Source: Planctomycetota bacterium
GTDB taxonomy: Bacteria > Planctomycetota > GCA-002687715 > DRQF01
Direction: 5' to 3'
DNA length: 12,187 bases
Assembly (NCBI GenBank): GCA_036479435.1
Contig: JAZGFI010000211.1
Coordinates: 1 to 12,187, forward strand
The translations under genes and the position numbers were made by a program. The notes below the pieces were generated by a model that was not told where the DNA came from, searched no databases, and was given only the letters and a program-made list of their open reading frames with translations. Positions 3,818 to 12,187 of the stretch are shown here, piece after piece; the stretch's first letter is position 1, and every line of letters starts with the position of its first letter.

Positions 3818-4762
3818 ATGGCTACTTCGCTCCCCACGCCTGCCACCACGCTGCCAGAAACAGACCTCACTTCTCCGGCTGATTCGGCCTTTGCAAAGTC
3901 CTTGGCTCTGGGCGCCAATTTTGTGCGCTGGCTGCTGATGGCATTAAACCTGTCTTGTCTCGATGCACCCTTGGTTGCCGTCACTTGGCAAGCGTTCGCC
4001 GCAGACGTTTTTCAGATTCAACTTAGCGGTTCGCGTGTCGCCTTGTTAGCCCTCGCGATTTGGTGTGCTTACGCCGGAGATCGTTGGTTGGACGGGTTTC
4101 GCTTGACGTCCAAAAGTGCTTCCCCACGTCATCGTTTCGCGCGGCGTTTTCGTATTGAGATGGCAGTGGTTCTGTTCCTAGGCATCGCCGCGGCGCTCGT
4201 CATCGCGGGGAGAGAACTCTCCGGAGGAATTGCTTTTTCCTCTTGGTTACTCGCTGGCACCGCCTTGGTGTTTATCGCCGGGACGTTTACGTCGCCGACT
4301 CTGTTTCGAGCGCGGCTGCCGCGCGAGTTGATTGTGGGATCGTTAGTCGCGGCTGCGGTGTGCCTGTTTCCTTTTGAGGCTCCAAGCGAATCCCTGTTCC
4401 CCAAGATGGTATTCGCGGCATCGATCGCTTTGTTGTTTGCCACCAATGGTTTGGTCATTGCGCGCAGCGAGCATCCCCGTGACTTGCTTTTGGGAGAGGC
4501 GAGCGCGGCGACGCGGTGGCCCCGAGTCATGGAAAAACTGCGACCATTTTTGTGGATTGCCATGGCCACCAGCGCGACGATCAGCTTGGCGGCGGGGTTT
4601 GCCCTTTCGTCGGCAGCACCGTCGGTCGTCTTGGCGATTCTGGCGATCGCCTTCGCCGGCTTGCTGTGGGTCGACCGATCGAAGATCGCAACCGACCTCA
4701 AGCCCGTGGCCGCGGATCTCGCCTTGCTCGCTCCTTGGCTCATGCTGTTTTATGAACTTTGA
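3818..4762 (+). CDS. Multi-pass membrane protein, divergent UbiA-prenyltransferase-like
   Basis: About 8-9 hydrophobic segments. YAGDRWLD and NGLVIARSEHPRDLLLGEASAA resemble degenerate versions of the two UbiA acidic motifs. Stop overlaps the next gene. Exact start and function uncertain. Confidence 0.6.
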   Translation: MATSLPTPATTLPETDLTSPADSAFAKSLALGANFVRWLLMALNLSCLDAPLVAVTWQAFAADVFQIQLSGSRVALLALAIWCAYAGDRWLDGFRLTSKSASPRHRFARRFRIEMAVVLFLGIAAALVIAGRELSGGIAFSSWLLAGTALVFIAGTFTSPTLFRARLPRELIVGSLVAAAVCLFPFEAPSESLFPKMVFAASIALLFATNGLVIARSEHPRDLLLGEASAATRWPRVMEKLRPFLWIAMATSATISLAAGFALSSAAPSVVLAILAIAFAGLLWVDRSKIATDLKPVAADLALLAPWLMLFYEL

Positions 4763-5453
4763 TCGCATTGCTCCTTACTTTCGCCCCTTGGAGTGGCTGT
4801 TGTTTCAAGACTCCATGCAACGCGCGCGCGAGTGCCATCTGTCGAAAGTTAGAGATGCCCGATCCATTTTAGTTCTCGGCGAAGGCGACGGCAGATTTGT
4901 CGAAGCTCTGTTAAGGGCCTCGTCGCCCAGAGGGCGCCACATCGAGATCCTGGACTCAAGCAGGCGCATGTTGGGGCTCGCGAAGAAGCGTTTGCAACGA
5001 TCGGGGATTGACCCTAAGGCCATCGCCGGTATTAGATGGCGACCAGAAGACCTGCGTGGTGCTGATCTCGGCCAACAGCGATTTGATCTGGTCGTGACGC
5101 CCTTCGTCTTGGATTGCTTCTCCGCTGAGAGCCTAGAAAAAATCGTGCCGAGCATCGCCTCCAGCCTGCAGCCGGGTGGACACTGGCTCCACATCGACTT
5201 TCGCGAGGCAAAGACGCCCCGGTGGGCACGCTGGCGGAGCCGCGCTTGGCTCTTCGCCTTGTACGCGTTTTTTCGGCGAACCGTCGATCTGGAGGCTCGC
5301 GAGCTCCACGATCTCGAGCCTCTCATGAGAGGGTATTCCCTCAAACGGCAGTCAAATACCCGATTTCGCGGCGGACTCATTGAGGCGAGTTTGTGGGAGA
5401 GCTTTACGCCGGGGCAAGCATCGGGGAAGATCACGCAGGGAGAAACAACTTGA
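4752..5453 (+). CDS. Class I SAM-dependent methyltransferase, 233 aa
   Basis: True start is ATG 4752 (MNFDRIAPYFRPLEWLLF), overlapping the upstream stop. Motif I ILVLGEGDGRF, acidic ILDSSRRML, FDLVVTPFVLDCF, LQPGGHWLHIDF. Confidence 0.85.
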   Translation: MNFDRIAPYFRPLEWLLFQDSMQRARECHLSKVRDARSILVLGEGDGRFVEALLRASSPRGRHIEILDSSRRMLGLAKKRLQRSGIDPKAIAGIRWRPEDLRGADLGQQRFDLVVTPFVLDCFSAESLEKIVPSIASSLQPGGHWLHIDFREAKTPRWARWRSRAWLFALYAFFRRTVDLEARELHDLEPLMRGYSLKRQSNTRFRGGLIEASLWESFTPGQASGKITQGETT

Positions 5454-7683: not shown

Positions 7684-7698
7684 AAGGAGTGATCGATG
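7684..7698 (+). promoter_or_regulatory. Ribosome-binding site of the TlpA-like gene
   Basis: AAGGAG at 7684-7689, 6 nt before ATG 7696. Confidence 0.8.
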
Positions 7699-8775
7699 AA
7701 ATTACTGTTGGCCGTCATAACGACGGCGCTTTTGTGGCCGTCGGGGCTGATCGCCCAAGGTGCGGATTCAATCGCGAAGATCTCTGCCGATTTTCAGGCG
7801 GCGGGTCAGGACGATGACCTCATTGACGACGATGAGATGAAATCCCTTGGCGGGCGCGCCCTGGCCTTAGCGAAAGCCAAAGGAGGCCGCGTTGGTTTTG
7901 ACGCGACGCTTTGGACTTTTTACGTCGCTAGGTACGGCGAAGACGACGGCGCCACGCGCAAAAAGTTGCGCCGCGGCGCCATGGATCTGGTCATTAAGCG
8001 CTACGCCAACTCGACGGGCAGTCTGAAAAAGATCGTGGCTGAGTGGCGGGTGCTCCGTCCCGATGATGTCAACGAGTTCGCGGGCTACTACCGAGAGCTT
8101 GCCAAGGCGACCAAAAAAGCCGCGGTCAAGGAACTCGCCAAAGCGGGCGGTTTCGGTTTGTTGTCACAAAAAGCCGACATGGGCTTCGCGCTGACCGACA
8201 AAGAACGCAAGCAGATGCTGGCCCACTGGAAGAAACTGGTGGCCGAAAAAGGCGACGAGAAAAATCCGAACGACCGCGCTGGCCGCAGCTACGCCGACAG
8301 CCTCAAGGGAAAGATCTTTGAAATTGAAAACCTCTACATCGGAGCGACCGTTCCGGAGATCGCGGGGACCGATATCGACGGCGTCAGCTTCAAGCTTTCA
8401 GACTACCGCGGCAAGGTCGTGATGTTGGACTTCTGGGGTCATTGGTGACCGCCCTGTCGGGCCATGTACCCCCACGAGCGGTCGCTCGTTAAGAAACTTG
8501 CCGGTAAGCCATTCGCCATCATTGGCGTTAACAGTGATTCTGACATCGAGGTCGTCAAAAAGGCCGTCAAAGAGGAAAACCTCACCTGGCGAAGCTTTTG
8601 GAACGGACCCAAAGGCACTGGAGGCCCCATTTCTGAGGCTTGGAACGTCACCGGCTGGCCGACGATCTACGTGATTGACGCCGAGGGTAAGATCCGCTTC
8701 AAAAACGTCCAAGGCGAAAAGCTCGACGAAGCCGTCGAGAAACTGCTGGCCGAGATGGAACAGAAGAAAAAATAG
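7696..8775 (+). CDS. Exported TlpA/ResA-like thioredoxin-fold protein with UxxC motif; probable selenoprotein (Sec at TGA 8446-8448), 359 aa
   Basis: The two track ORFs share a frame, joined by TGA CCG CCC TGT CGG GCC ATG. Read-through gives PEIAGTDIDGVSFKLSDYRGKVVMLDFWGHW-U-PPCRAMYPHERSL...IIGVNSD...WNVTGWPTIYVIDAEGKIR, a complete TlpA domain including the cis-Pro motif WPT. N-terminal signal peptide present. Confidence 0.88.
8474..8489 (+). promoter_or_regulatory. Candidate bacterial SECIS element
   Basis: Perfect stem ACGAGC/GCTCGT closing a GGTC loop that starts 32 nt after the TGA. The apex resembles E. coli fdhF SECIS (GCA-GGUC-UGC). Confidence 0.65.
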
Positions 8776-8828
8776 CCTTCGCGAAGAATTTCGGAACAAG
8801 TTTTCAGCTTGTGACGTTTCTTCGACCA

Positions 8829-8900
8829 GCTGGGCCTCTGGTTCTCTTCTCCTTTTGCCGGGATCGCTCGGAGGAGAGGCCAGGGGTCCGCTTTTTTTTT
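8829..8900 (+). terminator. Intrinsic terminator-like long hairpin followed by T9
   Basis: GGGCCTCTGGTTCTCTTCTCC (8832-8852) pairs with GGAGGAGAGGCCAGGGGTCC (8870-8889) using several G-U pairs, which favours a plus-strand RNA; TTTTTTTTT at 8892-8900. Confidence 0.7.
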
Positions 8901-8933
8901 GCTCCCAAAGTCAATCCTGCGAGGTCCTTACGC

Positions 8934-10050: not shown

Positions 10051-12061
10051 TCAGAACGATAGGTTCGTGAAATTCAAGACGTCAAAGGCCTCGCTGTAGC
10101 CCGCGAGGATGGCGGGATTGGAATCTACTTCGGTGACTCCGAAGTAAATTTCACGACCGGTGCCGCCGCCTAAGAATGCCCAAGTTAGGGTTCGATTAAA
10201 GGTGGCGAAGCCGCTGGCATTCGTGGTGGCTTGCAGGTTGGAATCAATGATCTGCAGACCGTTGTTGCCGTCGTCGAAGTACAAGAATCCGGTGACGAGC
10301 GCGCTGGCATTGGAAGCCGAGCCAATCTTGGAGTCAATCTGCGCCGTCATGGTGACATTCGTCGTCGCCATGGGTATGGTGCCCATCGAGATGCCGATGG
10401 GGCCGATCGAAACCGCGACTGATTGCACGAACATCTTGTCGGGAGCCTGGAGGGCTTCCGTCAGATCGCTGCCAATCGTGGCGGGGCTTGAATTGCCGGC
10501 CGGGTCCGTCGCGACGAAGGACACCGGGGTGGTGCTGCCATCCGGCAAGAAGTTCACGACGAAGGTGTGCTTGATCTCGTAGGGCCCAAAAGTCGGACTC
10601 GTGCGAGATTCGAGCCCGCGGATTCCGTTCCAAGTTGCCACGACTCGGCAGGGTTCATCCGTGCGGATGCGATACTTGATCGTGTTCGTGTTGAACCAGA
10701 TGACTTCAACGGCGGTGATGACCGGAGCGGTCGAGTCGTTGGGATTCTCAAAGATTGCCGATAGCGGGTTCGTGCCGTGCGCCACTTCGTAGCCGTCGGG
10801 AAATCCGTCGCCATCGGTGTCCGGGTTCTCGGGGTCGGTGCCGTGGTCGATCTCTAAAAGATCGGTTAAGGCGTCGCCGTCGAGGTCGACTCCTTTGCGG
10901 AATCCCATCCCGGAAGGCGTACCGATAAAGGTCCAAGCCCCGTAGCCGAGTCGTGCCAAATCAATGATCAGGGATGGGGGTAACGGAGGCCAGGACGGAT
11001 GGGGCGGAAAGAACAACCCGGTGCCCGGGTTGTAGGTGTAGGAGGTGCGTTCGATGCCCCCAGCACCGAAGTCCACCGATCCAATGGCTACGAGGTCAGA
11101 ATGCCCAGCTTCCGCCGCCGTGATCAGAGTGAGATGATCGCTAAAGGTTGCCCAGTTTTGCGACGTAACCGTCGCCTGATGAGCGCTCGATCGCGCGAGC
11201 CCCGTGTCCATGCCTTTCATGAAGTCTTCGAGGCGGGCGGCTTCGGTGGCGTCAATGTTGGAAAAAGCCTCGGAAAAATCAAAAAGCGTGCCGATGCGTC
11301 CGGTGTGGAGCAAGGACGGTCCGATCTCTGAGCTGAACCCGGCGGAGAATCCGCCCACCGATCCCAGGTCGTGCTTGCCGAGTTCTTTGTCGCCGACAGC
11401 GCGTAACTGGGTCACGACGAAAGACTGCGCCTGCCCGTTCGTCTCTTGGAAAACCTCGCCGCTACCGCCGATGGGCAAGGAGTGGCAAGCCGCGCAACTG
11501 TTGTTGGGCGTGGAAAGTTCCTCAATGAAGATGCGCCCGCCTTCGAGTTGGTTGGGAGTCGAACTGCGATCGAGGTTCTGAATCGGATTGGCGGGGTAGT
11601 GCAAAGCCGAAATGTAGTCGGACATGTCGGACAGTTCGCCAGCTGTTAGCTGGCTGCCCTTCAGCAAACCCTCGAAGGCGACATTGAAAGCCTCAAGATC
11701 TGAGCGCTCGCCACGCCAGTGATAGGGCGCGCCTTCGGGAAGTCCCCTCAAACTCTGAGTGACCATCGGGCCCTTGTTGTCGACCCATAGATCGATTTGA
11801 TTGGCCGGAGTTACAACTCTGTGGAGGTGATTGCCGAGGTTGTAGATCGTCTGGTTGGTGTGGCCGCCAATGTGACAAGAGGCGCAAGATGAGGTGCCAC
11901 CAGCGGAACGGTCAGCATCGTTAAGGATGCCGCGCCCACGACGCACACTCGCCGGAGCGGGGTCAAACCCAAGGCTTACGCTCTGCGCGATGGTGGTGCC
12001 GAAGGCGTCATTGACAAGATCGATCTTCGACAGGGTGTTGGTGCCGTAGTTGAAGACGATG
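10051..12061 (-). CDS. Di-heme cytochrome c (CCP/MauG-superfamily-like) multidomain protein, 5'-truncated or interrupted
   Basis: CASCH (11872-11886) and CAACH (11482-11496), KGPMVTQSLRGL...PYHWRG between them, a last propeller-like blade IVFNYGTNTLSKID, DxDGD repeats and beta-rich C-terminal domains. No signal peptide or credible start inside the window. Confidence 0.75.
10762..10887 (-). repeat. Tandem Ca-binding-type protein repeats (bacterial TSP3-like)
   Basis: DLDGDALTDLLEIDHGTDPENP followed by DTDGDGFPDGYEVAHGTNPL. Confidence 0.8.
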
Positions 12062-12187
12062 GGGTGCGGATCCTCTGCGACGACACTTATATCCTTACTA
12101 AACATAGACTTAGGTCTTTTTCGGGCTAGAAAATTGGGGCCATCCTTGCTACCTATGCAATGCAAAACGCAATAGGCCAGCACGGAG
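12062..12187. mobile_element. Probable insertion-sequence terminus (ISKra4-like inverted repeat)
   Basis: GGGTGCGGATCCTCTGCGACGAC resembles, from memory, ISKra4-family IRs (GGGTGYGGCTC...). GC is 39/90 over 12091-12180 versus 70/120 over 11941-12060, and the cytochrome frame stops looking protein-like here. No transposase inside the window. Confidence 0.5.

Follow-up and report, generated by a model that had tools for sequence, protein, structure and literature searches.

An in-frame TGA in a split planctomycete gene is predicted to encode the selenocysteine of a TlpA-like thioredoxin-fold protein

Gene layout and the in-frame TGA

The window, by which we mean the whole stretch of 12,187 nucleotides that was analysed, carries a frame that runs from ATG 7696 to TAG 8773 to 8775 and contains a sole internal TGA at 8446 to 8448, the codon of residue 251. 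In the databases, its halves are stored as separate proteins of 250 and 103 amino acids, as the initial annotation had foreseen when it described a split TlpA-like gene of 359 codons that pipelines would call as two or as a pseudogene. The gene and its associated features are as follows (positions are those of the window).

7684..7689, plus strand: Shine-Dalgarno-like AAGGAG, 6 nt 5' of the ATG, read from the sequence; its function is putative
7696..8775, plus strand: full gene, 359 codons plus TAG, with a single in-frame TGA, from the sequence
7696..7758, plus strand: likely signal peptide (MK, hydrophobic core, LIA-Q), by hydrophobicity scan only
7759..8331, plus strand: predicted alpha-helical solenoid domain, about residues 22 to 212, matching no Pfam family, from AlphaFold helices
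8332..8772, plus strand: ResA/TlpA-type thioredoxin-fold domain, residues 213 to 359, from Pfam and structure matches
8446..8448, plus strand: TGA, predicted Sec251, the attacking residue of U-P-P-C, from the sequence and homologues
8455..8457, plus strand: TGT, Cys254, the predicted resolving Cys, from the sequence
8464..8466, plus strand: in-frame ATG (Met257), used by gene callers as the start of the 103-aa second fragment
8474..8489, plus strand: predicted SECIS hairpin ACGAGC-GGUC-GCUCGU, which encodes H-E-R-S-L-V
8828..8901, plus strand: long hairpin resembling a terminator, with a U run after it, from folding against shuffles

The TGA had been placed at the first Cys of a thioredoxin WCxxC motif, and it does fall at the attacking position of W-U-P-P-C, in the protein context LDFWGHW-U-PPCRAMYPHERSL. 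Apart from U251 and C254, the protein has no Cys or Sec residue. Past the TGA, the same frame stays open for 108 sense codons, and the earlier impression that it shows no decay there was borne out: GC3 is 0.72 versus 0.69 on the two sides, and comparison with a full-length orthologue (L098, from a genome of the same family, 55% identical and also with TGA) gave redox-domain dN/dS values of ~0.16 immediately before the TGA and ~0.19 after it, indicating purifying selection on either side of the codon; the value for the N-terminal part was ~0.55. Eight of nine loci were processed in this comparison. A read-through protein with Cys was absent from the protein collection searched.

TGA is a normal stop in this genome, since it ends 1093 of 2400 long, non-overlapping ORFs. 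Within the window, five of the eight other ORFs checked end in TGA, the number given initially, and all eight use TGG for Trp. Genome-wide UGA recoding is ruled out by these stops, by the use of TGG and by a single UCA tRNA that was typed as tRNA-Sec. An assembly or sequencing error at the TGA is likewise ruled out by independent data: assemblies from study P2 (runs X2 and X7) and study P3 (run X4) span 8446 to 8448 and have no other letter there. This support from two further studies consists of assembled contigs, not the raw reads that had been proposed as a check, and run X1 was left uncounted as a possible source.

A sigma-70 promoter scan at the gene returned no match. The terminator-like hairpin has a folding energy of -39.2 kcal/mol (z -2.67), with equal stability in 2 of 200 shuffles; a simple terminator scan missed it. 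The gene lies between endonuclease III upstream and a type I asparaginase downstream. Endonuclease III also adjoins the orthologue L098, and otherwise the neighbours vary across the family; no conserved neighbour was found in the 1.5-kb flanks, where the biggest neighbour clusters comprised 7 of 101 loci.

Three other frames in the window were recorded in passing. A partial gene at 10051 to 12187 on the minus strand, which runs off the contig, has a CxxCH di-haem cytochrome c peroxidase-like part and TSP3 repeats, with a weak match to PF03150 and another weak match to hydrazine synthase gamma. On the plus strand, 3818 to 4762 encodes an LA_0991-like, prenyltransferase-like membrane protein (a weak match, 39 bits against a cut-off of 300), and it is followed at ~4752 to 5453 by an ORF that resembles a methyltransferase by eye.

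Selenocysteine machinery, homologues and the downstream hairpin

A search for the selenocysteine genes selA to selD had been suggested from the sequence, and all four were found above curated cut-offs: selA, selD and the tRNA-Sec gene lie on one contig and selB lies on another, and selD has an in-frame TGA of its own. Among relatives that carry the family, selB was found in 47 of the 50 genomes tested (out of 69 listed), and two of the three genomes without a selB match have selA, while the third, G054, has selD only. All 22 same-order relatives tested have selA. Five relatives in the phylum that lack both selA and selB had no TGA at the Sec position among the matches listed, a listing that leaves aside 92 weak ones. 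Two apparent exceptions to this pattern were rejected. Genome G027, which lacks sel genes, seemed to hold a Sec form, but its TGA is a terminal stop after W-C-P-P-C, and genome G078, taken for a Cys form left after loss of the machinery, has selA, tRNA-Sec and TGA paralogues.

Confirmed matches to the family number at least 515. The pairing of TGA with Cys at this column, which had been named as a check, is evident among related loci from GTDB genomes, 76 of 78 of which were assigned to Planctomycetota: the codon for residue 251 is TGA in 71 and encodes Cys (TGY) in the other 7, and the 71 TGA loci, which are up to ~40% divergent, hold it at one column. Within the genome itself, 10 of 11 BLAST matches have TGA at this column, and six close Sec paralogues are present, counting this gene. 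The other five (C263:3983, C112:6459, C170:22049 and C181:7920 on the plus strand and C290:353 on the minus strand) share the TGA and the GGTC hairpin and differ in their N-terminal parts; the C112 paralogue has a G-U variant of the hairpin with an 8-bp stem.

In a FastTree phylogeny of 134 domains, the seven close Cys loci and 14 Cys proteins form one clade (support, 0.999) that is nested among Sec forms, with deeper nodes weak. Because the seven loci form one clade, the contrast between Sec and Cys is largely a single event. Four Cys forms scattered elsewhere in the tree still read HERSL or HERAL. We thus attribute the contrast chiefly to a single reversion with subsequent decay, and to a few recent ones. 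Remnant SECIS elements after a change from Sec to Cys have been described (PMC1794560).

The hairpin at 8474 to 8489 was not part of the initial annotation, nor were the likely signal peptide, the helical domain and the six close paralogues. It has 6 bp and a 4-nt GGUC loop at a spacing of 31 nt from the UGA, and the local fold (8470 to 8493) has an energy of -8.5 kcal/mol. Published criteria for bacterial SECIS elements are a loop of 3 to 9 nt with G within its first two positions, a stem of 4 to 16 bp, a minimum free energy of -7.5 or lower and a spacing of 16 to 37 nt (PMC13188914), and the values of the hairpin lie within all of these limits.

Conservation of the hairpin is strict at the level of codons. 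They are frozen in 91 of 97 distinct TGA loci, and none of 13 Cys loci contains the 12-mer. In TGA loci, HERSL has CGG for R (91/91), TCG for S (91/91) and CTC for L (93/93), while the four- and six-fold synonymous sites around them vary freely; under this genome's codon usage, the chance of GAG CGG TCG CTC is 0.006. The genome contains nine copies of the 12-mer, and six of these follow a paralogue's TGA at a distance of 30 nt. HERSL is kept in just 3 of 102 Cys-form proteins, so the RNA signal appears to set the sequence of this peptide. As a separate observation from just outside the hairpin (8458 to 8469), Arg255 is CGG in 81 of 88 TGA loci and Tyr258 is TAC in 86 of 88.

RNAalifold returned the same six pairs unprompted. 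Across 22 sequences, the stem was 98.5% paired, and stem changes comprised no compensatory double change and two single changes that preserve pairing as G-U; one sequence breaks two pairs. Because no compensatory double change was seen, the evidence for pairing is conservation, not covariation. Folding of the whole region did not show the SECIS (z -0.62), and the naked window RNA prefers a pairing of 8447 to 8452 with 8478 to 8483 that hides the hairpin; this alternative helix would need to open once a ribosome sits on the UGA. Pairing of a UGA-CC stretch with the GGUC loop was rejected as a family feature, since only U-P-P-C forms allow it and about half of the loci are U-G-P-C.

The motif is missing from 6 of the 97 TGA loci, all from more distant relatives, and a scan of five of these found no substitute hairpin of at least 5 bp in four. 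Members of a clade of relatives at the order level (L112 and L115 to L118) keep the TGA, read HEKEM or DEKAL and have no clear hairpin of at least 5 bp.

Protein fold, redox partner and interpretation

An AlphaFold2 model built on 51 sequences (mean pLDDT, 91; pTM, 0.83) has helices over residues 2 to 212, with a pLDDT mostly of 80 to 97 in the solenoid, and a thioredoxin fold from residue 213. The C-terminal domain aligned most closely with the Bacteroides structure 4grf (Z 20.8, rmsd 2.0) and DsbE (3gl3; Z 20.8), followed by ResA (2f9s; Z 20.1) and TlpA (1jfu; Z 15.0). Its Pfam matches above cut-off are PF00578 (AhpC-TSA, the best), PF08534 (Redoxin), PF13905 (Thioredoxin_8) and PF00085 (Thioredoxin). 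Judged from Pfam, PDB sequences and structure, the traits of the TlpA/ResA/CcmG-like group (cd02966) are present, namely, a thioredoxin fold, a TlpA-type insert and an active-site pair at a helix start, and a G-W-P-T loop of the cis-Pro type is conserved (P322). In contrast, no NCBIfam model, including three for selenoproteins, matched above its cut-off: scores were 78.7 against 170 for ResA (NF002854), 57.4 against 230 for TlpA (NF047696), 33.1 against 300 for NF041054 (WAxxUGC), 17.1 against 100 for NF053656 (TUGYCR) and 15.5 against 805 for NF045694 (TsoB).

The N-terminal part matched only a designed helical repeat (5h78; Z 14.0, rmsd 4.5), a weak result for helical repeats that may reflect only a common solenoid layout. 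In the ESM Atlas, the best score for this domain was 0.89, to clusters that are unnamed or called "peroxiredoxin family," which we treat as a lead only. The N-terminus is hydrophobic and resembles a signal peptide in a simple scan, and no later transmembrane stretch was seen.

A single DsbD-type protein was detected in the genome. Two C-x5-C domains lie in its N-terminal part, and its C-terminal thioredoxin domain reads YTGVT-U-PNC; the gene lies on the minus strand of contig C271, and its TGA (position 81513; L258:1113) is followed by a hairpin of 8 bp and by another 108 codons. Of 19 distinct related genomes, 15 have TGA at this site and four have Cys (20 loci were fetched from 27 matches, and one duplicate was counted once). 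Because the only DsbD detected also has U-x-x-C, a reducing relay with Sec at both ends, in DsbD and in the Sec-TlpA protein, is plausible. DsbD re-reduces exported reductases of the TlpA type in the ResA/CcmG/TlpA family.

The sel genes, the pairing of TGA with Cys among homologues, purifying selection and the independent assemblies all favour the reading of UGA as Sec that was first put forward. We regard it as very likely from this evidence that the two stored genes are one gene, whose in-frame UGA is decoded as Sec, which would merge the two fragment annotations into a single enzyme. SelB with Sec-tRNA(Sec) would bind the GGUC-loop hairpin and insert Sec at codon 251. SelB-dependent insertion competes with termination in an established bacterial pathway, and failure of insertion would end translation at a 250-aa product that lacks the active site. 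The signal peptide is predicted to export the protein. By analogy with ResA, CcmG and TlpA, the selenolate of Sec251 would attack a substrate disulfide and Cys254 would resolve the intermediate, after which the Se-S bond would be re-reduced through DsbD; the helical solenoid may select the client protein. The product is thus, with good probability, a predicted exported disulfide reductase of the ResA/TlpA type with a U-P-P-C active site, likely recharged by DsbD.

A role for the same selenoprotein other than that of a DsbD-fed reductase with a protein client, as a disulfide isomerase, a scavenger of peroxide or sulfenic acid, or a metal/thiol buffer outside the cytoplasm, seems unlikely to us. 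It would agree with AhpC/TSA as the best Pfam match and with Prx-like UxxC selenoproteins as a listed class (PMC13188914), and six close paralogues with differing N-terminal parts and no conserved neighbours suggest diverse roles. However, the CxxC reductases ResA, DsbE/CcmG and TlpA outrank peroxiredoxins in the structural comparison, and the motif is U-x-x-C as opposed to the T-x-x-U of peroxiredoxins (PMC13188914).

Far less probable is that the UGA is read through as Cys or Trp, rather than Sec, by a suppressor or near-cognate tRNA. A natural UGA-reading tRNA-Cys has been described, and G054 has TGA forms of the family in an assembly where selA, selB and tRNA-Sec were not found; but that assembly (3.1 Mb) may be incomplete and has selD, the sole UCA tRNA among the 44 tRNAs of the present genome (92% complete) is typed as tRNA-Sec, and the hairpin fits a SelB-type consensus. 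The least credible reading takes the TGA for a true stop, so that the gene would either be a pseudogene or yield two proteins, the second from re-initiation at ATG 8464: two proteins are indeed in the databases and this ATG is in frame 15 nt past the TGA, but the conserved TGA column across divergent loci, dN/dS below 0.2 on either side, the split of a single fold into halves that each lack the active site and the lack of any Shine-Dalgarno-like run seen before ATG 8464 all speak against it.

Taking Sec insertion as the preferred reading, we tentatively propose a wider scheme, which we hold to be somewhat less likely than not: the gene would belong to a large Planctomycetota family that has yet to be modelled and in which the SECIS dictates HERSL, and in an extracytoplasmic reducing relay a Sec-containing DsbD would feed several exported Sec-TlpA paralogues, whose differing helical domains would select their clients.

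Relation to known selenoproteins and other candidate Sec genes

The gene is a member of a known broad class, the UxxC TlpA-like bacterial selenoproteins, and lies outside the ResA and TlpA equivalog models. That UxxC thioredoxin-fold selenoproteins are a known class, as was initially stated, is documented by catalogued predicted UxxC families in cd02966, PF00578 and PF08534 (PMC13188914, Table 1), by earlier reports of thiol-disulfide isomerase-like and Prx-like UxxC families (PMC1088965) and by listed Prx-like thiol:disulfide oxidoreductase and thiol:disulfide interchange selenoproteins (PMC1794560). With the catalogued TlpA-like members (PMC13188914), the protein has in common U-x-x-C, a TlpA/redoxin-type fold, PF00578 and PF08534, and an in-frame SECIS; it differs in the ~190-residue helical solenoid before the redox domain, the fixed SECIS that appears to dictate HERSL and the several paralogues per genome. 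Agreement with the "thiol-disulfide isomerase-like" family as described (Zhang et al. 2005; representative MGB1650493.1) is in motif and domain class only.

Table S9 of Kim et al. 2016 (PMC4807772) names as Sec candidates two thiol-disulfide isomerase-like thioredoxins from a planctomycete, and the annotation splits each of them into two genes. These P1 candidates, likened here by their description, share the thioredoxin fold, the in-frame UGA and the two-gene annotation, whereas a SECIS-type hairpin was found here and that source gives none by bSECISearch. Compared with ResA of B. subtilis, CcmG/DsbE and TlpA of B. japonicum, the protein has the same fold, W-x-x-P-C position and cis-Pro-type loop, but Sec replaces the first Cys and no membrane anchor was seen after the signal peptide; moreover, it scores below both the ResA and TlpA cut-offs, and no cytochrome c maturation genes lie beside the gene in the window. 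Our literature search found nothing on this sub-family or its SECIS, although BSepDB and several supplements may list these genes, and for a periplasmic selenoprotein with DsbD it returned only an unrelated match. The main texts of PMC13188914, PMC13326102 and PMC12013277 have no mention of planctomycetes; their supplements may list these genes.

With at least 515 matches and no NCBIfam model above cut-off, many planctomycete selenoproteins would be hidden as fragments. The fixed 12-nt SECIS offers a precise search handle for them and a clear example of an RNA element that appears to constrain protein sequence. The genome holds 20 or more candidate Sec genes in total. Aerobic bacteria rarely retain selenoproteins according to a 2026 review (PMC13188914), a statement that so many candidates, many of them exported, would fit badly were the host aerobic. 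A hairpin accompanies 22 of 28 hand-picked candidates versus 4.7% of all TGA, with criteria that were set after the candidates had been viewed, so the comparison is descriptive.

Several of these candidates have more than one TGA. On the plus strand of contig C181 (L131), a frame of more than 1250 codons that runs off the contig has three in-frame TGA codons (4587, ~6375 and 7920), with the motifs W-U-T-P-C, G-Y-G-U-T-C and a W-U-G-P-C/HERSL domain. Frames with in-frame TGA that look HMA-like by eye occur at C124 (minus; 11796, 11553 and 11313), C146:3357 (minus), C109:1396 (plus) and C96:7092 (minus), and one HMA-like protein has three TGA codons within 270 aa. On the minus strand of C274 (4861 and 4501), a thioredoxin-like V-P-G-U-x-x-C is fused to an MsrA-like G-M-S-U-Y-W, with a hairpin at each and names again by eye. 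More candidates in which an in-frame TGA is joined by a redox-type motif and a GU-loop hairpin lie on the plus strand at C279:18551, C96:7815, C262:46936, C294:2479, C220:1002 and C185:14439 and on the minus strand at C75:10125, C97:31014, C69:4347, C295:7575 and C209:1614. Finally, the database proteins P0005, P0008 and P0108 have MYPHERSL-type starts and a second redoxin domain, one of them ending at DFWGHW, and on these sequences they are likely fragments of multi-domain, multi-Sec members.
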